A stretch of 64,000 bases of DNA, from assembly GCA_026770705.1 (NCBI GenBank), contig JANJGN010000792.1, positions 124,001 to 188,000 on the forward strand. Reading direction: 5' to 3'. Made by a program: the position numbers and the translations under genes. Positions 12,831 to 64,000 of this stretch are shown here, in pieces. Every line of letters begins with the position of its first letter. Positions within the stretch are counted from its first letter, which is position 1. Under the pieces are notes generated by a model. That model worked only from the letters and a program-made list of their open reading frames with translations. It did not search any database and was not told the DNA's origin. The stretch comes from Isurus oxyrinchus. Its lineage: Eukaryota.

Positions 12831-13136
12831 CTCAAAGTTTGTTCCATTTCGCTTCTGCGCTCTGTATGTTCAACTTAGTTTATAGAGGAAAGTGTCTTGA
12901 AGTTTAATATTTAAACACAGTTGAAAATGGTCTCGAAACATCTGCATTCCAATAGAAATCATACAAAACGGTATAGTCACACCAATTCTTGTCATAAAGT
13001 CTTCCCAGATCTTTTAACATTCTGCCACTAATTTTCGGTCTTTTATGACCATTGCTGCGATTCTGACCATTGACAATCTCACTCCCTCAGCAGGTTCTTA
13101 TCAGGCTTTGTCCACTATTATTAATTTCCCTATCAG

Positions 13137-15535
13137 CCATGTGGACATCAGTGACCTTATTGGTGCTGAGCACTCGGTAACCACGGCAGATCCAGCCGCA
13201 GCGACTCAAAGGTTGTGCCTGGTTTTCTGCATCGCACAGATGCTGAACAGGGTTGAGCCGCTGCTTGCCGTGAGCGACCAGAAGGATAGAGAGGAATGGG
13301 GGACGGGCCACGTAAAATGGGAGGACCAGTGAAGTTCTTGGGGAAAATTTGGAGACGAAGTTGCAAGTTTTGTTCTTTACTTTCTCCGACTGTAACATAG
13401 GGAAGGCCGCACTGAAGTTGAACGCATTTGACAGGGAAAAGGTATATTATTGAATAAGCCTGGGGTCATGTCAACCATCGTAGAGTGTATAACTGGCCAG
13501 AAAACTGTTTAACGAAATCACACTGCACAATTGTTTCTTCGACATGTCCGTTTAGACCTGAGTGTATACGTCAAAGTCGGCATTTTTATTTTATTATTTT
13601 TTAAAGATTCACATGTTTTATTTTTCAAACTGAGCCAAGACCTCGAAGGAATGTTTGCAAATTGTTTTGCTGTTTCCACATTAGGACATGATCATACTGA
13701 ACACCAACAACGAAATCAAATAAAGGCCCAGCCGCCACAAAAAGCCAAGATTACAGTCCATGCTTTAGAAATTGTTTAAATGTCACTTCAAAATCGTCTG
13801 GAGAAAACATAATGAATAACATTCCCCTGGAATCCGTCGTGCCAGCTGGGTGTCTGTGGGCATTACGGACACCTTTTTTGACATGGATGCAACAGGTTAG
13901 TCTCCTTAAACAGGCCAACCAAGTAGGCCTCACTGGCTTCCTGCAAAGCTCCAATTGCATCACTCTGAAACCTCCGGTCAGTTTCGAAGCCCTGGGCAAA
14001 TTCCCTCATCAGACGCTGGAAGTACAGTTTACGGATAACCAACTCTGTGGAATACTGGCATCGGTGGATTTCTTGGAGTGCAACTGTACCCGGCCTGTAG
14101 CAATGAGGTTTCTTCACTTTGTCAGTGGAGGGGGCACATTTCCAGGCTGCCTTGGTGGCCAGCTGCTTCTTGGGCGCTTTGCCACCAGAGAATTTATGGG
14201 CCACGTGTTTGGTATGAGCCATCTCCGTTAAAGGATGGACTTGTCTGCCTGCAATAGTGAACTCAGATCATGTTTTATGCTCTTGTCTGCGAGCGCTGCT
14301 AAAGCAATGATCATTGCACTGTTACTGAGGCAGATAATAAAAGCTGCGATAAGCGATGAACAAAGAATCCTTCCAGTCAATCATCTTCATTGTGAATTGA
14401 CTGATTTCTCAGGCATTCCAATGTCACTCTTACAGAGTTAAGGATCGAGTTGAAGATCCCCCCCCAGCACACTGCTAATATGCAGCTGAACGAGCGTACA
14501 GATGATGAATCAATTGAAGACCAAGGGCTGTGTGCAGCCTCCTGCTGCTTGACTACATGGCAATGGTTGTGGCTCATCACAGAAAAGAAAAATCAAATAC
14601 TGTCATTCGCCTGGGCCTAGTTTGGAGACTAGCCGGCTGCTGTGTGCAGGGATAGTGGACAAGATGGAGGATGAGGAGGAGGAGCTACAACTACCTTGCA
14701 TCAGGATTGTATCAACCTCCAGCAGTGGCACCGAGCGGCAGTCAGCTTTCCTGAAAATGGACAGTGTGCACAGTGACAGCTGAAAGGAGCCAGGTGAGAC
14801 AGCCAGAGAGTTGGTGGCAAGGGAACGTGAGGATTAGGCTTATCATTGCACCTTCAGTCAGAATGAAAACAGTCACACATGAGGCCAATGAGACACAGAG
14901 CCCCTCAGCAGCTGCATTCACAGCCACATATGGTTGAGCTTCATTTGGCAGCAGCTGAACCTACATGGGTTGGAAATGGACATGGATGGGCCAACATCAC
15001 AGATCCAACACCACTTTACCCATCTCCGTAAATACCAGGGGTGAGACACCCGGGTGTTTTTCGGTAGACATGCACACTCTGGCCTATGAGAGACTCTGGG
15101 TGAATTGGAAGGCCTAAGGTTGGAGAATGGTGTTCTGCGTGCAGAGAACAAGAGATTGCGGCTCAAATTTAACATTTGGACTAGGGCACAACACTACAGT
15201 GTGTGGTTGCTGTGTCCCTGAAACATTATGATGTGTTGTCTGAGACACCTGAACCGGTGTTGTGTGAATTTTGAATTCGCCACCCCTAAACCTGGTGCAG
15301 GTTCTGCAATTGGATGTCATGCAATGTATGTAGATCATCCCCGCCACCTCCGCATCCACCATCCATCTCATGCCTGCTGCATCTATAGCCTTTGGATTCC
15401 TCTGGTTAGGCAGAGAATGTAACCTGTGACTTTCATCTCCCCACTGAAACTGTGATTCCTGGAAAGCTGCAGTTCATGCCGTGCATTGTTGCTCTCTTAG
15501 GGGGCACTGACAGCAGGCCTGAAGATGAAAAGTGG
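13137..15535 (+). pseudogene. BEN-domain gene copy A (exon a 13137-13362; exon b 14436-15535; BEN exons absent)
   Basis: Acceptors tatcag|cc (13136) and ttacag|ag (14435), donor tgg|gtgagt (15535); RLCLVFCIAQMLNRVEPL..VKW, LEGLRLENGVLRAENKRLR and PGKLQFM..DSRPEDEKW; stops and frameshifts present. Confidence 0.7.
13583..14260 (-). pseudogene. Processed histone H3.3 pseudogene (CDS ~13812-14222)
   Basis: MAHTKH...[19 protein letters not shown]...[11 protein letters not shown]...[21 protein letters not shown]: Ser31 and an AAIG-type motif diagnose H3.3. Intronless; AATAAA on minus strand (13617-13622) and decayed A-tail (T-tract 13583-13602). Confidence 0.85.
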
Positions 15536-16509
15536 GTGAGTACTTGTGGAACTCTCTCTCCATTACATGAAATCAGATCTCACCGACAGGTCGCATTAAG
15601 CCCTCGCCCTCGACTTTCCTGTGAACATGCTCACAGGCAGTGGATCAGAGAGAACCCGTCTTATGCCAATTGGATAGCATCTCTCTTTCTCTGTCTTGCA
15701 ATACCAATGGATTAGTAATCTAATCAATCATGTGTAATCTAATCATCTAATCAATTCTAGCCAGAGTGAAATTCCAACAAACAGTTTCTACAACAAACAA
15801 TGGACTGGAGCTCATCAACAGCTCACCATACACATGTTTTCAACTCCCTTGTGCCACAGGCATCGACCTCAGATTTAATCATATTTGGAATACTGTAAGC
15901 AATATTCATGTACATAATTATAATAAGTAATTATTGATCGTATCAATATTGTAGAGTGTGTTCTCATAAATCTGACTCACCAAAACGAGAATAATTATCG
16001 TTCTGTGTAAAAACAATCAAGTATATATAAAAATGCAAACTGCTATTATGAAAATATATGGGAGAAGAGGAAGTAGTGGTAGCAATGTGGTGAGAGAGAG
16101 AGAGAGAGAGAGAGACAGAGTCATCCATTGGTGCCAGAGGACTGGAGGATTGCAAATGTTCCATCCATATTCAAAAAAGGGAAGAAAATCAACCTGCCTA
16201 TTACAAACCAGTCAGTGGCGGGAAAGCTTTGACAAACAAAAATCATGATATAAATACATTGAAATTAATAAATAAGATCGGAAGTCTGGTGATCGCCGAA
16301 ATTGGCAACTTTCCTGGAAATATGATGTGAGTATTACATGCGCAGGTCTCACTGTCGGCCGCAGGTTCTCATTGAGAAATGGAACCACGATACTCACAAG
16401 GAATTCTTCAGGATATAACTGTACTGAGCATGCGACAATTCAATTTGTATTGTTCAGTAATTCTGTCAATCTGTGAGTTATTAAGCATCATTAAGTCCAG
16501 CTAAAGGTA

Positions 16510-16714
16510 AAATATTGTGGATGCTGGAAATCTGAAACAAAAACAAAAAATGCTGGATAAACGCAGCACCTCTGACAGCATCTGTGGAGACAAAGGCAGA
16601 GTTCACGTTTCAGGTCCATATGACTCTATGGACTCGAAAAGTTAACTTTACCTTTTTCACTATAGCTACTGTCAGAGACGCTTAGTTTTGCCAGCATGTT
16701 CTGTTTTCGTTTCA
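16510..16714. repeat. Inverted pair of Penelope-like terminal repeat fragments
   Basis: Arms of ~90 bp (tgaaacaaaaac...ggtccata and tatggactcg...ttttcgtttca) are imperfect reverse complements. Confidence 0.7.
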
Positions 16715-16894
16715 TAAAACCCAGATTGGAATTGAGACATGGTGACTTCATTTAGAGAGCTTATCCTGCCATCCTTCTCTCTGGGATCACTGAAGGCACA
16801 CCCTGCAGCCCCACATTAGACCAACTCTTCGATTTCATTTGTTAAAGTGTGAAACTAACCCCAGGTTCCTTTACTTCGAACAATTTATGTTTAT

Positions 16895-16966
16895 TCCTCG
16901 TTACTATAGTGGTCAGTAACGCCGTCTGTCACGCGGGAGGTAGGGGTTGAACTCACCGACGGGGAG
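16895..16966 (+). pseudogene. tRNA-Asp(GTC) pseudogene
   Basis: 72 nt tcctcgttactatagtggtcagt...ctgtcacgcggg...gacggggag, collinear with vertebrate tRNA-Asp; B box and stems disrupted; T-run follows. Confidence 0.85.
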
Positions 16967-19169
16967 GCATTTTATTACAAATTAACACAAAGGAAGCACA
17001 CAAAATTTGAATCGGCTTTAGAATTGGAAATTGGTTGATATAAAGTAGACATTTCGTGCAAGTAAAGGAACAGCGGTTGTTTTCAGAGGTGTGTGAGTGT
17101 GAGAAACTGTATGGCAATAGTTGGACGACGTTCCTGTGTGTGTTTTAGCATAAAAAAACGGTTTTTTTTCACCTAAACTGGCTTGAATCGGAAAATCGGT
17201 GATTCGGTAGCTTCAACCAAGAGCAGTTTGCTGAAACAAGACACTATGAAAGCGAGAGGAACCGGCCATGCTGAATTTAGTAATGAGTAACGAGCCAGAA
17301 TTCATTAATAATCCAATGGCAAAAGTGCATCTTTAAAAGGGTGGCAGTAACATGACATAGTGACTTACATTCTAATTTCTGCTATCATTTTTCACGGATT
17401 TTAAAATTTACTTTCCCCCTTGTATTCTTGTTTCCGGACGTCAGCTATTTAATATCCTGCCAACTATCCTCCATCTTTTATTTATTTGCTCGTCCCATTA
17501 CCTCTCCCTGAGTAAAAACCATGATTCTGCAAATTTCAATTCTATTTTATGGTCACTGCACGGATCAGCAGCTCCTTGGCTCAGAGATTAATTTCTCTTT
17601 CTGTCTTTCATTGAGCAACATTTGAAAGATGCTGAACGTCATTCATATCCCTCGCTCTTGCCCCTCGCCAATCTTTCAGTTTTCTTCCTCTGTAACACTG
17701 TCTCTTGAACTCCCTCCTAACTGTCTTCAATTCCCGACACCAAACAACAACTCAGTCCCTACATTTATCCCATTGACTGTCCCTTTACCGAACTCCTTCC
17801 TCATGATTGCAGGGGGGATTTGATATTTTGTTTGTAGCGTTGAACGGATAAGATCGGCCGATAAACTACGGCTGCTGACTGGGAATCAAGGTCCCAGGTC
17901 ACAGTCAAAGAATTAAAGCCAGAGATTTTAACAGGGGAATTAGAAAATAATTCTACACACAAATGACGCTGGAGCTTCTGATTACGGTAATTAATGTTTA
18001 ACGCATTGCTTTATTTTAAATCTGAGATTCAAAGAGTTTTCTTTAAAAGTGGTCTTAAAGGAATATAAGAGAAAAATGTACATATGGAGGTAGTCACCAA
18101 ACAACCAGGATCTCAGAAAAACAGAACATGCTCCAGCGATTAAAGGCTCTCTGCAACAGCAAAGCTCTAGGAACTGCCCCTGGTCACTCAACAGGGTAGG
18201 ATAGATCCTTCAGGACTGAACACTCAGTTCAACAATTTTTGATCAGAACATCTGCTTCAACATTGTTTGGTCACGTTTCTTTCTTTATTCCTTCATGTTA
18301 CATTCGGACTTTTGCTAGGTGGCCATTCACAAACTTATATGGACACCTGTTTTTTTTGCTTTACTTCCTACAGTCATTATATATTTTTGTCACCATGAAA
18401 CCTTTCCCCATGCCCTATATCCTCATTGAAATGTTCTTATGTACATCCCACCTATTCCCACACTCCACTGCTTTAAGCCCTGTTATATTCACATCTTTCT
18501 TCCATTTTGATAAAATGTTATCGACCTGAACAGTTCCCATTTCATCTCCAGACAAGATCTATGAGCTGCTGAATGTTTCCAGAATGTTCTGTTTTTTTTT
18601 CTTTCGGTTTTCCAGTTTCTGTACTGCTTTCCTTTTCTATCTGAAGGCATTTTGGAAAAGATTTCCTGAATGGCATTCATATTCCTCTCTCTCGCTTATC
18701 GCCAATCATTCAACTTTGTTGATCTGCAACACGGTTTGCTTCTTGAACTCCCTACTCATGCTCCTCAATTCCAGACAGTAAAACAGAGCTCAGCCCCTGG
18801 AAGGCACTGACTGTCCCTGCCTCCCTCGTGATTCATGCACTGATTTGATCCAAGAATTCCGGATGCCAAGGGAAACATAACATCGGAGCCGGAACCTACT
18901 TCTGTTTCCTAGGAATCTCGGACTAAGGGCCACAGTCAAAAATCTAAAGCCAGAATGGAAATTGAGAAACAGTTCTACACAGAAAGAGTTTGGAACTTCA
19001 AAGCTCCCTTTGTACACGGAAACTAATGCTTGATCAATTGTTGCATTTTCAATCTGATATTCGTCGAGTTTTATTAAAGGGTAGGAGAGAATATGAGCCA
19101 AAGCCAAGCATATGCAGCTCTTCTCCAATCAAGCACAACGTCACAGAACGTGTTTTCGGGACTAAATGG

Positions 19170-19420
19170 CGGCAACAACAGCAAAATTCCAAGGAGAACA
19201 CCTCATCTTCCAACTGCAGCCTTCTGGCCTCAACATTGCGTTCAGCGAATTTAACCCTAACATCTGTCTCCATGTTGTTTCCAGTGGGTATTTTTTTTCT
19301 TCTGGCCAGTTTGGTTTGTCACGTTTCTATCTTTATTCCCCATGTTACCTTCGGGCGGTTGCTGTGCTGCTATTCACAACCTCATCTGGGCACATCTTTT
19401 CTTTCCTTATTATACTCACA
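19170..19420 (+). mobile_element. Penelope-like element 3' end (GIY-YIG C-terminus); homologues near 18150, 51410 and 52430
   Basis: GEHLIFQLQPSGLNIAFSEF; the copy at ~52440 reads KFEEQQINFELGSLQPSGLNVEFNKF*. Confidence 0.7.
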
Positions 19421-19980
19421 GAATCACAGAAACTCAGAAATGTTACAGCGTAGGAGGGGGTCATTCGACCCATTTTGTCTGTACCATCTCTCCGAATGAG
19501 TGATTCACCTTGTGCCATTCCCCGCCTTCTTCCCGGATGAACGTTCCTCCTTTCCAGATAACAGTCTAACTCTGGTTTGAATGTTTCTCTTGAACCTGCT
19601 CCGCCACACTCTGAGGTGTTGCATTCCAGACCTTAACCACTTCCTGCGATAAAGGTTCTTTTTTTTTTCTCGTGTCACTATTGCATTTTTTAAACAACTA
19701 CTTTAAATCTGCACCAGCTCCACCTTGATCCTTTCAGAAATGGGAACATTTTCTTCACATCCAATCTGTCCGGATCCCTCGTGATTTTCAATTCCCCCAT
19801 CAAGACTCCACTCAGCCTTTTTTTTTATCTCAGGAAAATAGTCCTAATTTTCCAATCAGAGATGAAACACTCTCGTGAATATTTTCTGCCCTCTTTCCAA
19901 CACCCTTCACATCTTCCCATCCTTTCTCAACAGCAGCGGCCAGAACCAGACGGGATGCACCAGCTGAGGCTGAACAAGTG
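19420..19980 (-). mobile_element. CR1 3' fragment (paralogous copy at ~52690-53240)
   Basis: CR1 3' end in reverse orientation; the 52971-53168 ORF reads FTRMFPRMRIFSCEDRLEKLG..LREDL. Confidence 0.7.
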
Positions 19981-20805
19981 CCTTCTACAAATCTTGTTTA
20001 TTTGATTCCAATGATAGCACCCTTTGGTTTTTGTGCCATGAAACTTCGGTTTCCTGTCCTCACAGAGAATCGCTTTCGAATTAACCCCATAACCAACGGG
20101 TCAGGTTTAAGCTCTGTAATCCTGTCACCTGCAGTCCTGAATGGTAGTGGTCAACTTAACACTGACTGGAGAAAGAGGCTCCACAAAGAAATGATGGCCT
20201 TACCAGCGATTCTCACATCCACAAAGCAATAAAAGAAAAAGTTGTCAATGTGTCCCAAGCGTTGCAGCAATCCTCCCCTGGGGTCCTGTGTCAGTCCCAG
20301 GAGAGCGTCCTGCAGTGTCCCAAAGCGCATCACCTACAGGTTGACAGATACCACACGGTCACCCTCTGTTTCAGTGAGATTCATGTCGAGAACAGTTTCC
20401 ATGTGGATTGAAAGTGGAGAACAAAATTCATTGAAATGCATTGTGGTTGATCGAGAAGTCTTTAAAGCCTTGGTTTTTGCCAGAATTACTTCTCAAATCC
20501 CTCGAGGTTTTCGGAGATTGATCCCTAATGATGCTCTTTATGAAATTGTGTGCGGCGTTCCAGATGGGATTTCCTGCAAAGCTTCTGCACTAACCCCAAA
20601 GCAGTTTTCATTCACGTAACCCAACAAACCCATTGGTTCATTTGGTTCAACTGAAGAGGGAGGTATACATAAAGACAACGGTGCACATTTGCTGCAAAGG
20701 AAATTTCGATCCTGTTGTGCTCATTTATATTCACACGTCATTCTAAACGCTCTCCACCTACTCAAAACTGCGCAGCGCTTTGCCTGATGAATTTGAAATA
20801 AGTAA

Positions 20806-20880
20806 AAGTGCCTTTGAGATTCGAACACAGGATCGCCTCCATTACTAGATCTAAGATATCACCCACTAACCAACGGCAAA
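20806..20880 (-). pseudogene. tRNA-Thr(AGT) pseudogene
   Basis: Reverse strand gccgttggttagtgggt...tctAGTaa...gatcctgtgttcgaatctc, collinear with vertebrate tRNA-Thr-AGT; stems degraded. Confidence 0.7.
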
Positions 20881-21798
20881 ATAATTCCAAGCAACACCAG
20901 GCAGCGATGTTTTGAAGCGCATTCCACTGTTTTGCAGCAAACTCATTGCGAATTGTTCACCTGCTACAGGGCTGTAAGGCAGTGTGAACTGAGAATTTTC
21001 AGGAATGGGGACTTGAGGTGGATATTCAATCAGGAGATCCTTGAATGTTTGAGAATCCGGAAACCCATGACACACCTGCCGCTGTTGTCATTTTCTTACA
21101 GACACCAGACACAGGAAACATGAGGAATATATTGACCTTGGAGTGGAAGCGGCATTGATTCACCAGTGGGATTCCAGAGTTCAGTAGTTTGCATTTAGAG
21201 GTCAAGTTTCATAATCCTAGATTCGAAGAATCATACATTGGGTACAGAAGAAGAGGAGTCATTTGGCCCATCCTTTCTGTGCTGGCCCACAATCAATCCC
21301 CCGCCTTTTCCCCGCTCCTTGCACGTTGTTTTTTTAATTTTCAGGGATTAACTGTTTTCTATTCTCTTGATTATTAAAGAATGAAGTGTGGTCTGATCCA
21401 GCATCTGTTTTTGTGTCAGATTTCCCGCATCTGCAGTAGTTTGGTTTTATCTTTGTGATTTGATCGAAGTTTCTAACCTGTTAAAATGAATTGTTAGGTT
21501 AAACACGGAGAAACCGTTCCCCCGGCGGCAGGAACCGGGCTGAATTTTAACATTTATTCCTGGCACAGGCCTAGAGCGATAGTGCCAAACAAGAGGAAAT
21601 CAAGGAGCACTTTCTACACTTGGAATATCTGGAAGAATTCTTAAAATTGACCGAGGCTGCCACAATTTCGAAGGGATAGATCTTTTCTTGCACATCAAGG
21701 AAACGTCTCCATTTCTTCAGTTCTCTTGAAAAATTCAGGTACCATTGTTGGTTTTTTTGCCGTTTCATGGGTAGCGAGCACCTTTTGTCAATTGGCAG

Positions 21799-21859
21799 CG
21801 GCTAGACAGGGACTTGAAACCTGGACCCTCAGATGCTCTACCGACTGAGCAACCCAGAC
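21799..21859 (-). pseudogene. tRNA-Lys(TTT-family) pseudogene lacking the anticodon loop
   Basis: Reverse strand gctcagtcggtagagcat|ctgagggtccaggtttcaagtccctgt matches tRNA-Lys-TTT with ~12 nt (cagacttttaat) deleted. Confidence 0.85.
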
Positions 21860-23202
21860 TTCACTCTGCCTTTCCCGATATTCATCTTCATTGTTTAACA
21901 AGAAACAAGTCAAACTTTTTATGTGTTTCCTTATTTGTGGATTCACCCGATACAGAGCATTTCCCTCACAGACAGACCGGCAGCCTCCATTTGGTGTCAT
22001 TTCACAAATCTTCTAAATTGCACCAACTACTCGCTCCTGACCAGTGGCGTGAGATGTGACAGCTGTTGATACCCAGGTATCTGCACTGGGCCTTTAAAGT
22101 TTTGAATAGTGCGAAGAATCCTGGAAGGTATAATTGTAGTGGGAAGCTAAAAAGACACGGAGATGGATTTCGCAGTTAGTTAAACAATTTCATGGGGTGT
22201 TTGTTGTGGGGAAAGTATGATACCATCGCACGGAAAACATCAAAGCTCATTCGGAACAACGTTCCAAATTGAGCGAATCACAAAGTGTGGTGTGTAAATA
22301 GACATGTCAGTCCAGGGCCTTTATCGAAGAAACTCCAGCACTTATCCTTTCCTGCTCTTTCCTGCCTAATGCGCTTTTGCATAAATCATTCAAACCTCGC
22401 TCACCGTTATCGCCGGCAATATTTCAAAATTATCCTTCTGCATGAACCTCCCGAGGAAACGATGGTCCGATTCGGCTTCATTATATAGGCGGTTAATTCT
22501 CAATGCTGTTCCTGAACGTCATTGGTTTAATTCAAAACCATGCACCGACAAAACGGATAAAGGGACGTCTAAGATTTGAACGCAGAATCTTATGTGTATT
22601 CAAAAGGCTTTTTAACCAACTAATTCACAACGCCAACTCCAACCCAAGATTTACAATACAAAGTTATGAATTTTATCCCACTGCTTTCCTGCAAACATTG
22701 TTGTTCATCTATTACGAGCTGTATGAAAGTGCAAAATGAGAACATTGATCTGCACCGCGCTTCCAAAGCTTTGAAGATTGCATTTATTTCGGTGAGATAT
22801 TACGTTGCTGAAATTCCAGTGAGAGGTACAAAGGGACAGGGATTGATTTCGCGAATGGGGAAACAATTTCATATTCTGTTTCTAGTGGGAAAGTGAGGTT
22901 CCGACAGGTGCGGGAGATGCTGCTTCTGAACTCCAGGTCAGATATCAGGCCCACACTCCATTAATTAAAGACCAGCCCCATCACTGGAATCAGATACAGC
23001 TCACAGATTACAGATCTGTCATCATGACCATGGATTGGTCAACTTGTGACTCCAGACACAGGGCTCTTAACTGTCCCCCTGAAATGGCCCAGCAAAGCAC
23101 TGGGTGTTTCTAAAATCACTCAGTTGTACAGAATATTTTGCGGGTGAGGAAATGTTGCTCTCAGCAATGACAGATCACGCCTGTTCCCTTTGTCCATTTG
23201 GT

Positions 23203-30562: not shown

Positions 30563-31589
30563 ATAACTTGGTATCAATAAACCACACTGATCTCCGCCCA
30601 AAACAACGCTCAGAAAGTGACCCTCTTTGGTGTGAGTTTGACTTATTGTGTTGAATATGTGTACTTTATCATTCTGCTGGTTACAGAGATCTGTATTTTC
30701 CTCATTCGGTCTGAATCTGTTTTGATGTGGAAATATTTTTTTCTGCCTGTTTCTTTTCTTTTCCCAATCACTCCTGAATATAGTTACACACAACGCAGGT
30801 ACGCACAAGTGCATTGAGAGATAACACAGTTACACACATAATAATTCAGAACTGGCACACCAAGAGACACGAAATCCATTTTCAAACATTCCAATGTTAC
30901 TTAAAAATATTTATACATTGAGAATCTGCTGTCACCCAATCCGCAACAGGAAATAAAGATTTTGTTGACAGAAACACAAAGAAAATCCATTTATATTCGA
31001 CTATCATTTTCAAGTTTCGATTCATTCTGCAATCTAAATTTGGTAAACTACCAAGAAAAGTGCTTGTGGAGTCAATACAATGGATCGAAAGAATCTGCTT
31101 CCTGAGGCTGTGTGTGTGTATTTGGAACACAAGAGATGGAATGGGAAAACAATGGACAGTAGATGGAGAGCCAATCAGTAAAGGCATGGAGAATAGACAA
31201 GGAACATATCTTTCATGGACCAATTGAGAAATGAGAGTATTTTCCATATGATGAGAAACAAGGGGCTGTAGAAAAGCAAAGGGATTTAATTCTCCAGGTA
31301 CTGGGCTCACAAACACTCAGTGCACATGGACACAAAGAAGTCATTTGAAGACGACAATTTCCAGGCTGTCATATCTGAGTTAACACTCATTACAATCGAT
31401 AATCAGACAACTGTCCTGTATTTGCTGCTGCAATTAGAGTACAAATTAATGCCACTAAAGGAGGCAAAAAAACCAAGAAACAAGTTTTCTCATACAATGT
31501 TTTGAGTTGTAGCCTATTATTTGTGCAGTAGACATCATTGTTCACCTCTTCTGTGGCTTGAAATTGATCAGACATTCTTTATCTTTGAT

Positions 31590-32900: not shown

Positions 32901-33029
32901 AAAATCCCAATGCCTTCCTAAAAAAATATTTACTTCTGAAAGTGCTGGCGGGGGGCGAGGGTTGGGAGGGGTGGGAGGTGCGGGTGTGCTGCGGGTGCTG
33001 TGCTGTGGTGGCGGTATGTAGCTGGGCTA

Positions 33030-44019: not shown

Positions 44020-44091
44020 GTGATGGGGGTATAGTGGTAAGCATAGCTCCCTTCTAATTAATTGACCCGGGGTCGGTTCTCCGCCGCCGCA
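44020..44091 (+). pseudogene. tRNA-Gly(TCC family) pseudogene
   Basis: ggtatagtggtaagcatagct...ttgacccggggtcggttc...cgca, 72 nt; anticodon mutated to TCT, stems broken. Confidence 0.75.
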
Positions 44092-44734: not shown

Positions 44735-44940
44735 CGAGTGTGGATTGATTCTATCAATATCAGACTCTGGCACTATCTGTGATTGTGGAATTGATTCTGA
44801 TGCTACCTGCGATTGTGGGATTCGTTCTATCAATGTCAGTCTCTGGCACTATCTGTGATTGTGGGATTAGTTGTGTAAATATCAGTCTCACTTACTACCT
44901 GTGAGTGTGGTATTGATTCTGTATTTGTCAGTCTCTGACT
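44735..44940. repeat. ~46-bp minisatellite, short array
   Basis: Units like tgtggattgattctatcaatatcagactctggcactatctgtga. Confidence 0.75.
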
Positions 44941-47900: not shown

Positions 47901-47946
47901 GTTGCTTCTTACCACACTTCTCCGCTTTTATTATCATCTGTTACAG

Positions 47947-49666
47947 CCATATCAGCACCTCTCAAATGGATTTCAGTGACCTTATTGCTGCCGAGAGTTC
48001 GGCGCTCCAAGCAGAGCGAGCCACAGCGAGCCGAAAGTTATGTCTGGTTTTCTGGATCGCGGAGCTGCTGACCAGGATTGAGCCGCTGTCTGCCATGAGT
48101 GAGCAGAAGGATAGAGAGGAAGGTTGGATGGGCTTGGTCAAATGGAAGGGCAGAGGGAAGTTCTTCGGGAAAACTTTGAAAGTAAGTGGTAGGATTTTTA
48201 TTTTCTTCTGTTATAGCACATAGAAGTTGAACTGGAGCCCATTTGACAGGGTGAAACTAAACAAATAAATAGGCCTGGGAACATGCCAAACAAGTTAGAA
48301 TGTAAAACTGAGCAGAAAAATGTTTAAAACTCAGCCTGCACAATTGTTTCTTCAATACTTCCGTTTATGCGAGTGTCTACAGGACAAACCTGATCATTTC
48401 TTAATGAACTAAGGCACATGATTTATGCTCTTGTCTGCACAGCGCAGCCCAAGGCAGTGACCATTGCACTGTTAAAGATTCAGATACTAATATCTGCGAT
48501 AAGCATGATGTAAAGAAACTTTTAGTCAATCGTATTCATTGTGAGGTGACTGATTTCTGGGACATTGCAATATTAATTTTGCAGATTTATGGAAGGAGCT
48601 GTTGACCTGCAGCTGGACACTGCTGCTGACTGTGCTACAGGAGCGAGCGCACAGCAGGCGAAGAATGTGATGACCAAGGGCAGTGTGCAGCCCCCTGCCA
48701 CTGGACTCCATGGCACTGGGAGTGGCCCTCCACAGGGAAAGGGAAAACAGTGTTATTCACCCGGGCCTGGGTTGGAGACTAGCCGAATGTTGTGTGCAGG
48801 AATAATTGCCAAGTTGGAGGACGAGGAGCAGGAGGAACCACCCACAGCTGGAAACGTGTCAACCCCCACCAATGGAACCGAGCAATGATCAGCATTGATG
48901 ATAACGGGCACTGCACACAGTGTCAGTGGAAAGGAGCTGAGTGAGCCAGCCAGAGGGAAGAAGGAAAGGCAGCATCAGGCTGAGGCTCAACGTTACCCTC
49001 AGTCAGAATGAAAACAGCCACATCAGGCCAATGAGGCACAGAGCCGCTCACCAGCTGCATTCGCAGCCAAAAGAGGCTGAGCTTCACAACCAAACATACA
49101 TGGGTGCTAAATGGACAAGGACTGCCCAGCATCACAGATCCAACACCATTTTACCCAACTCCATACATAACAGAGGTCAGACTCCGAGGTGTGGCAGATG
49201 GACAATCGCACTTGACCCTACGAGAGACTTTGGGTGAAATGGAAACCCTGAGGCAGGAGAATGGTAACCTGCATACAGAGAACGAGAGGCGCGGGCTCAA
49301 TTGAGCAGTTGGGTAAGGACACTGCACTACAGTGTGTGATTGCTGCACATTATGATGTATTGTTTCAGGGACCTGAAAACGGTGAACTGTGAACTTGGAA
49401 CTGACCATACCTAACCCTGGTAGAGATGTGCAATTGGATGTCATGCAACGAATGTGTATCAATCCTGCCCCTTTTTAACCATCCCCACCCCTTAACTGCT
49501 GAATTTATAGCCATTAGATCTTTCTGGGTAGAAATATAGAGCAATGTGTGACTTTACTCTTTCCATTGAAGATGTGAATCCTGGAAATCTGCAGTTCATG
49601 TGGCACAATGTTGATCTCTTGAAGGGTAATGGTGGCTTCGACAGCAGGCCTGAAGTTGAAAAGGGG
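47947..49666 (+). pseudogene. BEN-domain gene copy B (exon a 47947-48188, open from ATG 47966; exon b 48585-49666)
   Basis: ttacag|cc acceptor; MDFSDLIAA..RKLCLVFWIAELLTRIEPLSAMSEQKDREEGWMGLVKWKGRGKFFGKTLKVS-G|gtagg; ttgcag|at acceptor; coiled coil LRETLGEMETLRQENGNLHTENER; exon b donor mutated. Confidence 0.7.
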
Positions 49667-52600
49667 CTGAATACTTGTGGAATTGTCTCTCCGTTCTGTG
49701 AACTTAAGTCACACTGAGAGGTCACATCATGCCCTCAATCTTGATTTTCCCGTGAACATGCTCACAAGCAGTGGATCAGTGGGACCAGGGTTTATGCCAA
49801 TTGGATGGCATCTCTCTCTTGTAATTCAACTGGATTAGCAATCTGATAAATCAAAAGTAAATTGTTATCTAAACAATTCGAGCCAGATTGAAGTCCCTAC
49901 ACACAGTTTCTGCGACAAACATTGGACTGGAGATCACCGACAGCCCGCCATACAAATCTGTTCTGTACCCTCCTGACACAGATAGCGAGCTCAAAATTAA
50001 TTGCATCTGGAATACTGGAAGCAACGTTCATCCACATAACTATAATGCACAGTTATTCATCGTATTTATATTGTATACAGTGTTCTCATAAATCCGACTC
50101 ACTCAAAAGAGAATAATTGTAAAAACAATCAATTATATATAAAAATCCAAAGTGCAATTGTGAAAATGTGTGAGACAGAAGGGCAGGTAACTATCGAAAT
50201 TTTGGTGAGAGAGAGAGACAGAGTCACCCATTGCTTCCAGAAGAGTGGATGCTTGAAAATGTTACATCCAGATTCAAAAAAATGGGATAAATGTTAAACT
50301 GCCTATTGCCGGCCAGCCTGTTTCACGCATATGGCGGGGAAGCTTAGACAAACAATAATCCTGAAATAAATAAATTGAAATAGAGAAATAAATCAGAAGC
50401 CTGGCGATCGCCGACACTGGCTGCTCTCCTCCAAGTTTAGTGTATTAAATGCGCAGATTTCACTATTAGCACATTTTCGCATTGAGAAATGGAGCCACTA
50501 TTCTCACGAAGAATTGTCCTGACCAGGAGGCAACTCAATTTTTTTATTCAACAGTTATGCCATTTTTGGGATATTAAGCATTATAAATCCAGATTCTAAT
50601 TGAAACACAGTGAGTTCACTGAGAGAAGGTATCCATTCATCTTCACCTCTGATGTAACTGAAGGAAGGCGGCACCCCTACAGTACCACATTGAACCCACC
50701 TCTTCAGTTTCATTTGTGAATGTGAGAAGCTAACACTAGGTTTCTTTACTTTGGTTACTTTGGGAAAAGGCTATAGGCCAAGTGCTGGTAAATGGGGTTA
50801 GAAAGGTAGGTCAGGCACTTCTCACGTGCCGGTGCAGACTCGATGGGCCAAAGGGCCTCTTCTGCTCTGTGATTCTGTGATTCTGTGAAAATCTGATAGA
50901 TGGTGAATGCCATTCATATTCCTCTCTGTTCCTCCTCGCCAATCTTTCGTTTTCTTTTATTCTAACTCTATTTGCCCCTTGAACTCCCTCCTAAACCTCC
51001 TCAATTTTTGTCACTAAACCGCAGCTCAGTGCCTACATTTAACCCACTGACTGTCCCATAACTGAAGTCTTTCCTCATGATGGCAGGAGGGATTCAGTAC
51101 ATGTTTTTTACAATGTTCAATGCGTAAGATCAGTCCATAAACTACTGCCACTGACCAAGTGTCACAGTCCAAGAATTAAAGCCAGAGATTTCCCTGCGGG
51201 AATGGGAAAATAATTCTGAACACAAAGGGAGCTAGAATTTCTCTACACGGCAATAAATGTTTCACCCAATGATTTATTTGAAATCTGAGATTCAAAGAGT
51301 TTTCTTAACAGAGATTATTACGAAATATGAGGGAAAAGCGAAAATATGGAGGTAGTCACCAAACAAACAGAAAAAAACAGAACATGCTCCAGCGAATAAA
51401 GGGTCTCAACAAGAGTAAAGGTCAAGGAACAGCGCCTGACCTTCCAACTGGGTAGGAAACAGCATTCTGGACTCAACACAATTTTAGATCAGAACATCTG
51501 CCTCAATATTTTTTGGTCACGTTTCTTTCTTTACTCCTTCATGTTACATTCAGACCGTGCCTTAGCAGCCATTCACAAACTCAGATGGACACCTCTTTTT
51601 TTATTTCTTTCCTACAGCCACTACAATTTGTTTGTAACCATTGAAACTCTCCTCCTGCTATCTACCCTCATTGACATTCTCTTTTGCACATCCAACCTCC
51701 ACCCGCACTCCACTGGTTTAAACCCTTGTTACATTTACATCTTTCCTTCATTTTGATAAAAAAAAATCATCGACCTGAACAGTTCGCCTTTGGTCTCCAC
51801 AGATGCTTTATGAACTGTTGAATATTTCCACAATTTTCTGTTCACTTCGGTTTTCCAGTGTCTGTACTACTTTCCTTTACAATCTGAAAGCATTTTGGAA
51901 AAAATCTTGAACGTCATTCATATTCCTCTCAATTTATTCTCCGCCAATCTTTCAGCTTTCTTGCTCCGCAAGTCTGCCGCTACAGCTTCGTCCGAACGTC
52001 CCTCAATTCTGGACACTAAAATGCAGCTCTTTGTTGAAGACAGTGGCTACCCCTGTAACGGATTCTCCCCCGTGATTTTTGCACTGATTTGATCCACAAT
52101 TCTGGAATGCTAAGGGAAACAGAAAATCAATCCAAGACCTATTTCAGTTTCCTGGGAATCTCCAATTAAGGTCCACAGTGAAAATATTCAAGCCAGGAGT
52201 TCCAGCATGGAAATTAGGAAACAATTCTATGCACAAAGGGTCGCAGAACTTCAGGACTCTCTTCAGTACAAGGAAATTAATCCTTGATCGATTGTTGTAT
52301 TTTAACTCTAAGAATGCAAGAGTTTTGTTAGAGGATATTAAGGGTTATGGGGCAAAGGCGAGCATATGGCGATAGTCACCAATCAGACACAACATCAGTG
52401 AACATGTTCTAGGGACTAAATGTCCTTTAGAACAACAAAATTCGAGGAACAACAGATCAACTTCGAACTGGGTAGTCTGCAGCCTTCTGGTCTCAACGTT
52501 GAGTTCAACAAATTTTGATCCTAATATCTGCCTCAATGTTGTTTCGAGAGTGTATTTTTTTTCTTCTTGTTGGTTTGGTTTGTGACGTTTCTTTCTTTAT

Positions 52601-54081: not shown

Positions 54082-54155
54082 AAGCGCCATTGAAATTAGA
54101 ACTCAGGATCACCTGCATTACTGATACAAGATATCATGCACCAAACCACAGCACA
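54082..54155 (-). pseudogene. tRNA-Thr relic (paralogue of 20806-20880)
   Basis: Same position in the duplicated block; gatcctgagttctaat remnant. Confidence 0.55.
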
Positions 54156-56084: not shown

Positions 56085-56157
56085 TCGATGGTGATACAGT
56101 GGTGAGCATAGCTGCTTTCCAAGTATTTGACCCCCAGTTCGATTCCCAGCTGCCGCA
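56085..56157 (+). pseudogene. tRNA-Gly(TCC) pseudogene
   Basis: ggtgatacagtggtgagcatagctgctTTCCaagtatttgacccccagttcgattccc..cgca, followed by a long T run; acceptor stem broken. Confidence 0.8.
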
Positions 56158-56804: not shown

Positions 56805-57165
56805 TGAGTGCGGATGGATTCTATAAATAACAGTCTCTGCTACTGTCTCTGATTTTGGAACTGATTCTGGGACTATCAGTCTCTGATACTGTTCTGTAAT
56901 TGTGGGATTGATTCGATCAATTTCAGTCCCTGGCACTATCTGCCAGTGTGGAATTGATTCTGTAAATATCAGTCTCTGATACTGTCTGTCATTGTGGGAT
57001 TGATTCGATCAATTGCAATCCCTGGCACTCTCTGCAAATGTGTGATTGATTCGATGAATATCAGTCTTTGCTTCCATCGGTGGGTCTGAGATTGATTCGG
57101 TAAATATCAATCTCTGCTACTAGCTGTGAGTGTGGGATTGATTCTGTATCTTTCAGTCTCTGACT
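56805..57165. repeat. 46-bp minisatellite, about 8 units
   Basis: Tandem units such as attgtgggattgattcgatcaatttcagtccctggcactatctgcc. Confidence 0.85.
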
Positions 57166-59321
57166 CACAAACAAGCAGCGTTCCATGTGGGACTAAATAC
57201 CTCTTGCGTGGTTTTCCGCTGCAAGTCAGCAACTGAAATCAACATTTTCTACAATTCACTTTGATCAGCATCTGAACAAAAGAACTGGAGATGGGGAAAG
57301 GTCAGAGAAGAATGAAAAAGTCGGAATTGTCCTTTTAGGAAGCTCAATTTGTGACCATTCCCCACAAGGCATTTGCTGTTTACGAGCCCATTTTCACAAA
57401 GCAATCCTGCAGAAACATGGGAGGATTGAGGAGGCTAGCGAATCTGCTGGAACCGGGCAATAATTAAGACTTACTCACCTCTGAAGTGGGAGTTAAACGG
57501 AAAAATTTAGTTGATTTTATGATTTCAGTAGGAAAGTAGAGAACATGTCAGCAAATGGATGAAAGAGCATGATCTCTGCAGCAATAAAATAGGGTTAAGT
57601 CGAAACTGAGGCTTTTTCAGCAAATGGGAACTTTTCAAAAGCAACCATTCTGGTCTGAGAGACAGGAAGGATCTCGCCTGGGACTCCGGACTGTCCGATT
57701 TTCAATGAGAGTTTAGTAGCACACGGAAACCAAAAGTTTCATGCACTAGGACACCCAGACTCCTTTGCATCTCAGAGCTTTGCAATCTCTCACCGGTTGG
57801 ATATTGAAAAAGTTCTAGGTGAATCAGGAGTGAGCGGGACCGAGAATACGAGAGGTTGGAGCCTTTGGCCCGAGCTGACAGAGGCCACAACGTTTTAAGT
57901 CGGGCAGAGGTGAAGGGCGAGGCCAAAACCATGTGGATCCCGAGAGACCGTGGAGTGGCGAATGCAAACAATTATTCTGATATTGGGGCATAGTAGGGGT
58001 GAGGTGGGGGGTGGTAATTGAGGAGTCAGGCATGCATGGAGAAGGGGAACGGGGAGCCAGGATGGCATGGTGATAGAGGGTGGGTGGAGGGAAGCGAGAC
58101 CGGCCTGGAGTTGTTTTTAGTGGGGGAAGCGGGTGAGAGGGGGGGAAGAACTGGCTTGAAACTTCTACCGTGATTTTTTTGGGATATTCTTTGAATTAAG
58201 TGGCCCATTAACCTAATCTTTCCGCGTGTAAGAGCTGTTACATTGAGAGAATTCTCTGCTTCATCCTCCGAATGTGATCTTTAGGGAGACGGGGCACATG
58301 GCTGCTGCAGTTTGAAACCTCATCCACATGATGAGGCCGCTAGTAATACAGCACTCAGCCTTGTGCTGAGTCAGACTGCATGGTGCATCCTGGGCTACAA
58401 ATTGGACTCCCTGCTTTCGGGATAGAGACAAAAGAAAATATGACCGCAGGCCAGCCATCACCTCAAGGGGATCTGCAAAGCCTCCAGGACATTTGGGAGA
58501 TGATCCCCGCGACATGTTTATCTCAACCGCGGAAGTCTCTTCATCTGCTGCTCCTGCTTTATTCAAGAATTGTTTCAGTTTCCACCCTTTCTCAGTGCCA
58601 CCCCCGCACATAGGGAGATGTTTTCAACTTAGTTTACAGTGGACAAAATGTCCATTTGAGGTTTAATATTTACACCAACTTGAAAATGGTCTAGAAACAT
58701 CTGGAGTACAATAGGGGTGAAACAAAACTCTAGATTGGTGTAGTCATCAATCCTTGTCATAACGTGTTCCCAGATCTTTTTGCTTCCTGCCCGTAATTTT
58801 CAGTCTTTTCTGACCAATGCTGCCATTCTCACCATTGTCCATTCTTAGTCCCTCAGCAGTTTCATATCAGGCTTTGTCCACTGTGATTACCGTCCCTTTT
58901 GGCCATCTGGACATCAGTGACCTTATTGCTGCCAAGGACTCAGCGTCCCCAGCAGAGCAAGCCGCAGCGACCCAAAAGTTATGTTTGGTTTTCTAGATCG
59001 CGGAGCTGCTGACCAGGATTGAGCCGCTGTCTGCCGTGAGCGACAAGAAGGATCGAGAGGAAGGGGGGACGCGCTGTTCAAATGGAAGGGACGAGGAAAG
59101 TTTTGAGAATAAGTGGAAGCATTTGTTCTTTATTTTCTCCTCCTGTAACATAGGGTAGGCCGCAGTGACAGGGAAAAGCGAGGTTAGTAAATAGGCCTGG
59201 GGTCATGGCGAACAATGTAGAGTGCAAAACTAGCCAGAAAACTGTTTAAAAAAAATCACTCTGCACAATAATTTCTTCAATGCTCCCGTTTAGTTGGGAG
59301 TGTATAGGTCAAACACGACCA

Positions 59322-60005
59322 TTTCATTTTTTAAAAAAGATACTAAAGTTTATTTTCCAACCTGAGCAAGAGTTCGAAGGAATGTTTACAAAATGTTTCG
59401 CTATTTCCACTTTAGGACACGATCAATACTCAAAACTAACAAAAATACAAAATAAAGGCCCAGCGTCCACAAGAAGCCAAACCTACAGTCCAATAATGTT
59501 TTAGAAAATGTTTGAATATCACTTCAAAATAGTCTGGAGGTGAAGTAATAAAGCAAAGAGTTTAAGCACGCTCCCCCGGATCCGTTGTACCAGCTGGGTG
59601 TCTTTGGGCATAACGGTCACTCTTTTGACATGGATGGCACACAGGTTGGTGTCCTCAAACAGGCCAACCAACTAGGCCTCACTGGCTTCCTGCAATGCTC
59701 CAGTTGCCACACTCTGAAACCTCAGGTCAGTTTCGAAGCCCTGGGCAATTTCCCTCACCAGGCGCTGGAAGGACACTTTGCAGATAAACAACTCTATATG
59801 GAATTCTGGCATCGGCAGATTTCTCAGAGTGCGACTGTACCCAACCTGTAGCGATGAGATCTCTTCACTTCGCCAGTGGAGGGGGCATATTTCTGGGCTG
59901 CCTTGGAGACCAGCTGCTTCCTGGGCGCGTTGCCGCTGGTGGACTTCCAGGCTATCTGTTTGGTATGAGCCATCCCTGCTCAGAGGATCAACTTGACCGC
60001 CTGCA
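59322..60005 (-). pseudogene. Processed histone H3.3 pseudogene (CDS 59562-59973)
   Basis: [34 protein letters not shown]...[15 protein letters not shown]...[24 protein letters not shown]; AATAAA on minus strand at 59349-59354; short T-tract 59322-59332. Confidence 0.85.
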
Positions 60006-61451
60006 ATAGTGAACTCATGTAAATGATTTAGGTTCTTGTCGTCAGAGTGCAGCACAAATAATGATCATTGCACTGTTACAGAGGCAGATATTAATAGCTG
60101 CAATAAACAAAGAACCCTTTTATTCAATCCTATTCATTGTGAATTGACTGATTTCTAAGACATTCAAATATTACTCTTGCGGAGTTAAAGAAGGAGCTGA
60201 GGACCGCTCAGCAACCTGCTGATCTGCAGCTGGGTGCTGATGCTGACCATGCTGCAGGAGCGTGCGCACAGAAGGTCAATAAAATGTAGACCAAGGGCAG
60301 TGTGCACCCTCCTGCCGCTGGACTCCATGGCAATGGAAGTGGCTCAGCACAGAAAAAAGGGAAAGTAGTGTCATTCACCTGGACCTAGTTTGTAGACTAG
60401 CCGACAGAAGTGTGCAGGGTTAATGGCCAAGCTGGAGGATCATCAGGAGGAGGAACGACCTACCAACAGGACGGTGTGAACCTCCACCAGTGGCATCAAG
60501 CAGTGGTCAGCATTGGTGAAAACTACCACTCTGTACAGTGACAGCGGAAAGAAGCCAAGTGAGGCAGCCAGAGGGAAGGACAAATGGCAGCATGAGGCTG
60601 AGTCTCAACGTTTATTCCCAGTCAGAATGACAACAGCCACATCAGGCCAATCAGAGCTCCTCACCAGCTGCTTTCAAAGTCACATTCTGCTGAGCTTCCT
60701 TTGGTAACAGCTGAACTTACATGGGTGGGTAATGCACATGCACAGTCCAGCATCGCAGATCCAACACCACTTTATCCATCTCCATAAATATCAGTGGTCA
60801 GACAGCGAGTATGACAGGCTGAAATAGAAGCCCAGAGGCAAGAGAATGGTACCCTGTGTGCAGAGTACCATAGACCACGGGCTCAATTTCACAGCTGGAG
60901 CAAGGCACTAGATGTCCTCTGTGTGACAAGCTGGGTAAGAATTCCCTGTTCCATGCTGCACTCCACAAATCAGCAGCTTCCTCTACAGTCAGTGATTGTC
61001 GGGTCCCTGCACATTATGATGAATTGTTTGAGGCACCTGAAAACAGAGTTGTGTGAATAGAGATCCTGCAATTGAATGTAAGGAAATTCACGTGGATCAT
61101 CCCCACGTGGCCCCCGCCCTTCTGCCCCCTCCACAGCTTCTGAATCTATAGCCCTTGGATTCCTCTGGAGAGCAAGATAAAGCAACCAGCGAGTTTCCCC
61201 TTTCCATTGAAGCTGTGAATCCTGGAAAGCTCATGCGGGAGATTTTTCGCCCCATTTGTCCCAGTGGCAATTGATAGCAGGCGTGAGGATGAAAAATCGG
61301 TGAGTGCTTGTGGAACCCTCCCAACAATATGTGAATTTAGGTCAAACTGAGAGATCACATCATGTTCTCACCCTTGAATTTGCCAAGAATATGCTCACAA
61401 GCAATTGATCAGAGACAATGGTACCTACATCAATTGACTGGCCTTTTTTTC

Positions 61452-61770
61452 TGGTGATGTCACTGGATTAGTAATCCAGAGAGGCTAATGCTCAGGGGAC
61501 ATAGGTTCAAATCCAACTATGGCAGCTGATCGAATTTCAAATCAGTTGAGACATTCTGGGATATAAAACTAATTTAAATAATGCTGGCCAACATTAGAGT
61601 ATCATCGGTTGTTGTAAAAAAAAGCCGGTTCATAAATGTCCCGTGTGGAAGGAAATCTGCTGTCCTTGCCCAGTCTGGTCTGCAGAAATGTTGTTGACAC
61701 TTAACTATTCTCAAAGGATGGGGATGCCGGCCTTGTCAGGGATGTCACATTGGAGAGAATGAAGAAAGTC
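61452..61770 (+). mobile_element. tRNA-derived SINE
   Basis: ggtgatgtcactggattagtaatccagag...ggttcaaatcc (B box)...gaaggaaatctgctgtcctt...LINE-like 3' tail. Confidence 0.7.
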
Positions 61771-62766
61771 CTTGCTCTATCGCTCTGTAAGGCATATAGT
61801 GGCCTGCCTAGTTCAGCCTCGACGGTTTGAGTGATTCTTGCCACCAGGTTGGGAAATTAAAAGAGAAATCGCAGCGATCACGCTTTGACTCGCTCTTTAC
61901 GATGGTTCAATGTCCATCACTGAAACATTGTTAATAATATTTTTCAAAGCGACCAGCAGTTATTCCCAGCATTATACCGACCTCAGGGGGTAACTGCCAA
62001 TCAACCACCTATTAATGCCGAAATTACATAGATGCAGAGCCGCATTTTCACACAAAGAATACCTCCTGGAGGCAGGATTGAAGAATGGGAGTGGGAATGA
62101 AGATTTGAGGCAAGTACAATCCACTCAGGACATGAAAGCACATTGTCTAGTTTTCACATCCTATCGTGTTTTAGCAGCAACACGCATTTGCAGCCATCAG
62201 ACTATCAGGATCTCAAATTAATTCCCTAACTTTCAGAAACCTGGGCAAGAGAAAGTGAAAGTGCAACATCGTCAAATATTTTTTGTTGCACCAGAAAAAT
62301 TGGAGACTCTGAAATATTTAGAAAAGAGAAATCTGGTTATAAGCCGCCTGGTGCATGCACTCTTCACTAGTGACGTCCTTCTGAACTCAAGCTGCAGGGG
62401 CACAGCTTCTACAGCAGACGGGAGGAAGCCTTTACCCTTAAAGGTCACTGAGACAGTCAACGGTGAGTGCACATATCAACCAGTCGCCAGGCATTTATAA
62501 AGAAATTAAATGTATTGCATGTAATTCCCAGGCGCTGCTGGATGGTGAACTAAACATTCGGTCTGGGACCAAATGTTTCAGTAAAAGAGCGTCTCTCTTG
62601 TGATTTTAATAAGCGAATGCGTTACCTTCTCGGAGTTCATGAGACAGCACCATCGACAGGTGGAGAACCAGTGACGGGAGAGACAGAGCCGAACCGAATA
62701 ATAAACAGCTGCTGCACAAATGCAAGACGGCGGCCCAGCAGGAGGCTGGACACAACAGGAGTGGGA

Positions 62767-62881
62767 TAAAAACAAAAAACTGCGGATGCTGGAAATCCAA
62801 AACAAAAACAGAATTACCTGGAAAAACTCAGCAGGTCTGCCAGATCTGCTGAGTTTTTCCAGGTAATTCTATTTTTGTTTT
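62767..62881. repeat. Young fold-back Penelope-like terminal repeat insertion
   Basis: 41-bp arms 62799-62839 and 62841-62881 are reverse complements with 2 mismatches. Confidence 0.85.
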
Positions 62882-63586
62882 ACAATGAGAGTGGGGATCT
62901 CCCAGTGACTGCAGGGTGAACATCTATATATTCACCTTCCATTTTAACATTTGGGTATTTTTCCCTCATTGTGTTCATGGTCGGGAAATGATTCAAGAGG
63001 AAAAATAAATCACTATCCGTTTAAAAAGTCCCAAATTGGGGTCAGAAGAAGTGTTATTTTGACAGGATTTGCCACAAAACAGATAACCTGAATTGATGAC
63101 ATTTCATTGTCTCCGAACTCTCCTAGATTTTCACTGCAGGTGCAGGATTGATGTTTTCTCGTCAGTCGTGCGCATTATTGAGCACAGGGGTGTGCCGCGT
63201 ATTCACTGACAATTCCCATATTGGCAATTTAACTGAAAGTTTGGTGTGAGTATTACATCCGCGGATCTCACTGGCGGTCAGATTTTCCCATTGATAAATC
63301 GAGATACTACACAACAGAGGAATCTTTCACGATATGAACGTGCTAATCGGAGGACAATTCAATTTCTTTCATTCAACAAATCTATCAATTTGTGGGTTTT
63401 ACGCATCATAATGTTCCTAATAGCAATTAAAGAACAGCGAGTTCAATCAGATAAGATATCCGGTCATCCTTCTAGTCTCTGAAAAAGCTGAATGAAGCCC
63501 GCAACCTCCCCATTCCCACAGTCAGCATTTTCTTCTGTTACTGTGTAAAGTTAGCCCCAGGCCTATTGATTACAAAGTCAGGCAGC

Positions 63587-63658
63587 TTCTCGTTAGTATA
63601 GTAGTTAGTATCCCCGCCTGTCATGCGGGAGACCGGGGTTCAATTCCCCGACGAGGAG
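63587..63658 (+). tRNA. tRNA-Asp(GTC), near-intact variant, possibly non-functional
   Basis: ttctcgttagtatagtagttagtatccccgcctGTCatgcgggagaccggggttcaattccccgacgaggag: stems pair, but the D-loop GG is AG and only T3 runs follow immediately. Confidence 0.75.
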
Positions 63659-64000
63659 TGCTTTAATTATCTTTAAAGTAGAAAACACACGAAATTGGAA
63701 ATGTACTTTTAAATTCAGATGTAGGAGACAGTGCAGATAAATATGTCGTATCAGCGACAGGGATATTCAGGAAACGCGGCTGCTTTCAGAGGTCCGGAAT
63801 ATGGGAGTTCCTTGACAGGAACGGCCCTTCACACCAAGTCAGCCGACAGTTCCGTATGTGTCCGAACACCGATGCTGGCTCTTTCATTTAAACTGGGCTA
63901 AATCGGAATTTCCGTGAAATGAGTGAATTGGTACCTTGAAACTAGGACAGCTAACTGAAAGAAGATATTTTCAAACCGAGAAGAACCGGCCACACTCGAT

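Follow-up and report, generated by a model that had tools for sequence, protein, structure and literature searches.

A BEN-domain "gene" beside shark tRNA genes is probably a broken piece of an EnSpm-like transposon multiplied with a tRNA/histone cluster

The window analysed here is a 64,000-nucleotide stretch of an Isurus oxyrinchus contig (G000:C792:124001-188000, from a 4.98-Gb assembly), which contains transfer RNA (tRNA) and histone-derived sequences together with exons of an open reading frame (ORF) encoding a BEN domain. An earlier note, made from the letters of the window, had read it as an amplified cassette of about 12 kb, in which a host BEN chromatin factor was co-amplified in three copies with polymerase III genes in the consensus order tRNA-Gly, minisatellite, BEN, tRNA-Asp, tRNA-Thr, tRNA-Lys. 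Our analysis points to a different history: the "BEN gene" is very probably an internal fragment, now broken, of a cut-and-paste transposon resembling EnSpm. The element likely inserted a single time, within a tRNA/histone cluster and upstream of a tRNA-Asp gene, and was afterwards carried passively through the duplications of that cluster.

Self-comparison of the window resolves three partial units (12869-22284, 43913-54650, and 55977 onward; Table 1), which match one another at 67-76% identity. Only units 2 and 3 lie about 12 kb apart, with 43913-49843 matching 55977-61476 at 67-74% and at offsets of 10.9-12.2 kb; unit 1 is offset from unit 2 by 33-35 kb and from unit 3 by 46 kb, and its relic is 72% identical to unit 3 over 58623-61476. 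Irregular spacing (12, 34 and 46 kb) and differing contents thus replace the proposed head-to-tail array with a 12-kb period, in contrast to a tRNA-Asp array on C21 whose repeats measure 11.1-11.5 kb. Unit 1 lacks tRNA-Gly and the minisatellite, unit 2 lacks tRNA-Asp and tRNA-Lys, and the consensus order is complete in no unit. BEN exons occur in one of the three units; the segment 61476-63215 of unit 3 is replaced by unrelated DNA in units 1 and 2. The relic in unit 2 also lacks tRNA-Asp and a histone H3 insert, the latter being missing from copies dispersed elsewhere in the genome as well. What survives of the earlier reading is an old duplication followed by decay and, in the clustered copies, a close linkage of BEN to tRNA-Asp. 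The partial unit at 31.6-32.9 kb also holds up, and the block repeated at a 12.5-kb offset is real (10447-10685 versus 22905-23144, 79%) but amounts to 240 bp with unrelated flanks.

The tRNA-Gly copies at 44020 and 56085 are genuine, as relics of Gly(TCC), and so are the tRNA-Asp, minus-strand tRNA-Thr and tRNA-Lys, and minisatellite elements, mostly as relics. The tRNA-Asp at 63586 is the sole one to pass ARAGORN at its default score; the other six of the seven tRNA-like sites fail it and were found by relaxed scoring or with probes. The relic at 21797 is probably of the Lys isotype, judged by its sequence. Beyond the window, unit 3 runs into a canonical-looking tRNA-Ile(AAT) at G000:C792:190691-190767, retained in the copies on contigs C35 and C17.

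On sequence grounds, the BEN-like exon of the window is a true BEN relative. A family profile built from relatives of the window matches the NACC1 BEN domain at E 3e-4. A single close protein, P0001 (XP_078415413.1, uncharacterized LOC144691243 of Cetorhinus maximus), was found among 1.84 billion representatives, at E 1e-20; it aligns over residues 34-138 with the NACC1 BEN domain (PDB 8yzs, 7bv9) at E 3e-8. Pfam PF10523 scores below its cut-off and is seen in 4 of 18 family members, a Pfam BEN search of the genome did not recover the window, and protein searches by word index, started from the BEN exon and from P0001, gave nothing at E 0.001. A check of the five-helix fold used a single-sequence AlphaFold model of P0001, which reached a predicted local distance difference test score of only 48 and had no Foldseek match at E 0.001.

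The nature of this ORF becomes apparent from its dispersed copies, which lie on many chromosomes, keep the same multi-exon BEN ORF at 60-75% identity, and share with the window the ORF region alone (58229-63194). On the right, the shared sequence stops at one column, with a terminal motif in 23 of 30 dispersed loci (one misplaced row is omitted from this tally); on the left, the inverse of that motif, CCCTACCAGAA, is present in 18 of 26 loci. These form terminal inverted repeats (TIRs) of about 22 bp, and both ends flank BEN-ORF pieces on C2, C3, C7, C11 and C19. At locus L105, a minus-strand transposase relic, 60% identical to P0004 (PF02992), lies 41 bp from the BEN ORF. Among seven transposase loci, five have the same left end, one has both ends and three have parts of the BEN ORF (one inverted). 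The dispersed transposases carry CPNC as a C(2)C motif, and T3 and L105 carry H-QLL-H as an H(3)H motif followed by an FE motif.

In EnSpm/CACTA elements of the CMC(T) clade, as defined in PMC12730594, the DDE transposase bears the motifs C(2)C and H(3-4)H, the ends are TIRs, the target-site duplication (TSD) measures 2-5 bp, and the termini read 5'-CA..TG-3' (CAC for EnSpm) "in most cases". The dispersed copies resemble these elements in their transposase homolog (PF02992) with both motifs, in TIRs with short subterminal repeats, in the many internally deleted copies, and in a second ORF for a predicted DNA-binding protein. The analogous second-ORF protein of EnSpm elements is TnpA, whereas the second ORF here combines a BEN domain with a coiled coil. 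The termini also differ, reading CCC..GGG and thus beginning with CCC rather than CA, and the window holds only a relic without ends. A TSD scan could score 14 of 19 end pairs, with exact 2-bp matches in 3 (0.79 in shuffled pairs, p 0.03) and exact 3-bp matches in 2 (0.34 in shuffled pairs, p 0.03). Because of the CCC termini, the want of a single TSD size and the fact that no copy examined has all four features, we file the element by its sequence features as EnSpm-like (CMCT clade), not as CACTA proper. In the literature on BEN and transposons, including PMC10789644 and 10.1101/2023.12.06.570431, with Repbase and subscription papers outside the scope, we found no report of BEN as an accessory ORF of EnSpm-like elements. 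A Harbinger-like reading of 47258-47597 and 58229-58620 was rejected, with no Pfam match and no tblastx match to the transposase loci.

How did a piece of such an element come to lie beside tRNA genes so often? Of 214 candidates for the BEN exon in the genome, 150 were scored; 148 of these are matches, spread over 46 contigs, with a few rows being split matches. Seven of the matches are on five large chromosomes, the others on C17 at 88.4 Mb, on C20 at 79-81 Mb and on many mid-size contigs; clustered relic copies number about 140. Within 274 kb of the home contig the exon has one significant match, in unit 3. Of 120 kb fetched from C35, 97 kb are collinear with the window and its flanks at 93-97%, which suggests a recent amplified unit of about 100 kb or more; on C17 the collinearity is at 75-88%. 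Among 40 scored copies of the unit 2 relic, 17 are 93-100% identical to it and 9 are 84-86% identical. Taken together, the large-block collinearity and the copy identities mark the 12-kb offset as an old internal duplication. Two DNA runs from a second organism cover all 30 bins of the interval that begins with the BEN exon and stops just short of tRNA-Asp; the coverage comes from many contigs, none of which spans the whole stretch. Relic and flank are thus not confined to the assembly examined. Neither the cluster loci nor 258 kb of the home contig yielded a terminus or a transposase. The TIRs that had been suggested as a check are therefore a feature of the dispersed relatives, and the remark that no transposase is visible in the unit was accurate, but the unit is itself made in part of transposon DNA.

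We sampled 10 kb around 40 of the 148 matches (33 cluster, 7 dispersed). A tRNA-Asp lies downstream of the BEN exon in 28 of the 33 cluster loci, at a constant spacing of about 1.2 kb; tRNA-Gly is found within 7.5 kb upstream in 12 (6 clear, 6 weak), and both flank BEN in 9. The proposed linkage therefore holds in the clustered copies for tRNA-Asp but not for tRNA-Gly. Dispersed copies do not share it: tRNA probes matched none of the 7 sampled dispersed loci, nor any in a set of 14 dispersed loci. Conversely, exact 34-base tRNA-Asp cores number 68 in the genome, 44 of them with a BEN exon less than 2 kb upstream, and 11 others form the separate, BEN-free C21 array. In the cluster copies, tRNA-Asp diverges no slower than its own flanks. 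An element that targets tRNA genes, as Dada does, could by many independent insertions account for the constant spacing. Yet the cluster copies form one branch, have common flanks beyond the element and lack termini, and with the 0 of 14 dispersed loci matching a tRNA probe this makes targeting scarcely credible.

The cluster copies are also decayed. A tree of 41 rows (midpoint-rooted only; L106, near-identical to L107, omitted) separates 34 cluster from 7 dispersed copies at 100/100. The acceptor of the last BEN exon, surveyed in 60 of the roughly 140 clustered loci (two rows lack that exon), reads CGG in 42 of 58, TGG in 8, CAG in 4 and otherwise in 4; among dispersed copies it is CAG in 5 of the 7 rows where it was found. 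The four CAG cluster rows are close sisters with stops in exon a, and their CAG may have arisen by CpG decay of CGG. With exon a and b bounds taken from a provisional model, exon b is free of stops in none of 20 full-length cluster copies and exon a in 15 of 42. On 14 disjoint pairs with transition weighting, the ratio of nonsynonymous to synonymous change (dN/dS) is 1.12 for the first BEN exon and 1.18 for both exons, and 0.76-1.65 in non-coding controls. An intact spliced frame under purifying selection, as expected of a functional gene, was thus not seen in the cluster copies. Two sets of transcript-like data have no bearing on expression: contigs of X22, a run guessed to be RNA, cover a common repeat alone (3 of 30 bins), and the metatranscriptome X20 gave short pieces only.

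These results bear directly on the proposal of a functional cassette, in which a host gene for a chromatin factor would have been amplified together with tRNA genes and would have decayed only afterwards. Tight linkage to tRNA-Asp, a first BEN exon that is frequently open, an all-pairs dN/dS of about 0.6 and the basking-shark protein model P0001 would all be consistent with such a cassette. However, the dispersed copies lie within TIRs, so that the ORF is cargo of a dispersed transposon; acceptor loss is common to the branches of the cluster; dN/dS is neutral on independent pairs; and the 11-kb tRNA-Asp array on C21 amplified without BEN. P0001, moreover, corresponds not to the cluster copies but to dispersed copy L109 (G000:C15:35492916), whose last exon is nearly letter-for-letter P0001 and which bears a right-end relic. 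P0001 likely reflects gene prediction across a transposon relic, and its near-identity to L109 suggests a shared old insertion. We regard the functional cassette as largely refuted and very improbable.

Several points nonetheless weigh against a transposon origin with passive spread. No one copy examined joins both termini, the transposase and the BEN exons, and the full element is a composite; L104, the dispersed locus most closely related to the cluster copies, shows no termini; and the exact TSD matches are few and of no single size. Of the roughly 140 clustered loci, the acceptor was inspected in 60 and exon b in 20. The all-pairs dN/dS of the first BEN exon, 0.59-0.66, lies below all 45 control windows; we dropped this measure because its pairs are not independent and its transitions are unweighted, and the low signal is gone once transitions are weighted and independent pairs used. 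Finally, no empty site was found. The C21 tRNA-Asp array was considered as an empty-site parent and rejected, homology being confined to the tRNA and common repeats.

With these points in mind, we propose the following course of events for a transposon piece amplified with its tRNA neighbour. The full element would have comprised a left end, a transposase on the minus strand, the multi-exon BEN ORF on the plus strand and a right end, with the BEN protein likely binding the subterminal repeats as a helper. One element would have inserted just upstream of a tRNA-Asp gene, and this founder would have lost its ends, transposase and last splice acceptor before amplification. An H3 pseudogene may then have inserted in the sub-lineage leading to units 1 and 3, older local duplications would have created the 12-kb and 34-kb offsets, and deletions would have stripped BEN from units 1 and 2. 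Later duplications of blocks of about 100 kb or more probably spread the relic over many contigs.

Where the transposon obtained its BEN ORF is a separate question. A phase-1 intron closes the first BEN exon after an AIK/AVK-type motif, at a matching position in a BEN exon on C13, which we take to be BEND4-like, and in most of nine further BEN-like exons fetched. Such a family-wide intron marks common ancestry but not its direction, and specific BEND4 ancestry is rejected. The intron, shared as it is with host BEN exons, would fit Pack-type capture of a host gene in one transposon sub-lineage, with BEN as a passenger instead of a working transposon protein and the cluster history unchanged. 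Many of the elements have lost internal parts and are mixed in content, and four short metagenome contigs with related transposases have no BEN match; these contigs are, though, just 1.9-2.8 kb, too short to test for BEN. The Pfam BEN search of the genome turned up no host gene similar enough to the ORF to be its parent, and copies on many chromosomes retain the same multi-exon ORF, so we hold capture to be possible but doubtful. A further idea, which we consider unlikely, is that shark EnSpm-like transposons use BEN as an accessory DNA-binding factor and have traded BEN genes with their hosts, some vertebrate BEN regulators of the NACC/BEND4 type being domesticated transposon genes. Both the common intron position and the closeness to NACC1 fit it. 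The transposon ORF differs from NACC1 in that no BTB domain is seen, the shark NACC-like exon has an extra intron, and the window copy is dead and sits in transposon DNA. Ten further weak BEN matches (L318-L327) mostly end at the shared phase-1 intron; three of them (L321, L322, L326), which resemble no gene we can name, may represent further BEN ORFs that transposons carry or that hosts have domesticated.

Other features of the region are collected here and in Table 1. The segment 17599-21372, duplicated at 50873-54650, has 99 genome matches, nearly all on cluster contigs; it has an internal 1-kb repeat and a part that looks coding (20233-20619), and the tested ORFs at 17-22 kb and 51-54 kb gave no Pfam match. 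An H2A pseudogene with a histone 3' stem-loop lies at 9440-9852, and rhodopsin-family G-protein-coupled receptor genes lie at 3026-3973 (an open 315-aa frame) and 39026-39955 (broken). Upstream of the duplicated block, G000:C792:1-92400 holds about 92 kb of satellite DNA, with repeats of 34/37 bp and higher-order periods of 74/111 bp. The C21 array (G000:C21:97475832-97632665; L310-L312) is homogeneous at 95-99% identity with canonical tRNA-Asp, and also holds decayed internal Asp duplicates and occasional Ser/Glu genes. Gly-Asp pairing is known in mammalian tDNA repeats.

Table 1. Features of the window and the evidence for each.
Feature	Position	Strand	Evidence and remarks
Unit 1 truncated transposon relic	12869..15720	+	5' exons of BEN ORF; BEN exons absent (no BEN match)
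H3 pseudogene nested in unit 1	~13863-14255	-	Pfam E 6e-26
tRNA-Asp(GTC) relic	16894..16966	+	ARAGORN at relaxed score only; nhmmer 42 bits
Duplicated cluster DNA shared with 50873-54650	17599..21372		72% identity
tRNA-Thr-like relic	20807..20878	-	nhmmer with 54083 copy, 27 bits
tRNA-Lys-like relic without anticodon arm	21797..21874	-	sequence; also in C35 and C17 copies
Partial, more decayed copy of 20952-22284	31574..32902	+	61-66% identity
tRNA-Gly(TCC) relic, unit 2	44020..44090	+	35 bits versus intact Gly(TCC) of L089
46-bp minisatellite, unit 2	44737..44937		repeat search and self-comparison (repeat noted at 44803)
Unit 2 truncated transposon relic	47190..49843	+	exon a ~47984-48180, exon b from 48585
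tRNA-Thr(AGT) relic	54083..54154	-	ARAGORN at relaxed score
tRNA-Gly(TCC) relic, unit 3	56085..56157	+	relaxed scoring and probes
46-bp minisatellite, unit 3	56812..57163		repeat search (repeat noted at 56817)
Unit 3 relic of BEN ORF region, EnSpm-like transposon	58229..63194	+	60-72% to dispersed TIR-bounded copies
H3 pseudogene between exons a and b, unit 3	59560..60010	-	Pfam E 1.9e-7
First BEN-domain exon	62237..62462	+	open frame; phase-1 donor after TVN G; Pfam BEN E 0.06-0.12
Last BEN exon	62634..62750	+	acceptor reads CGG; frameshifted in window copy
High-copy short interspersed repeat fragment	62765..62881		common repeat
tRNA-Asp(GTC), predicted gene with several changes	63586..63659	+	ARAGORN; Rfam 54.5 bits

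The apparent functional cassette is thereby removed; a dead transposon piece copied along with tRNA DNA is ordinary debris of a multiplying tRNA cluster. Clusters with abundant tRNA loci lying together with histone genes are reported for elasmobranchs in bioRxiv 10.1101/2025.06.08.657570. The window is alike in having tRNA loci beside histone DNA (H2A and H3 pseudogenes) and differs in its BEN ORF, a term with no occurrence in the text of that preprint. Of the 68 exact tRNA-Asp cores, 44 trace back to a single amplified locus; much of the genome's tRNA-Asp copy number thus has this origin, which bears on the surplus of tRNA loci reported for sharks. The EnSpm-like transposons that carry a BEN ORF, for their part, suggest a path, open to testing, by which BEN transcription factors could have arisen and spread.

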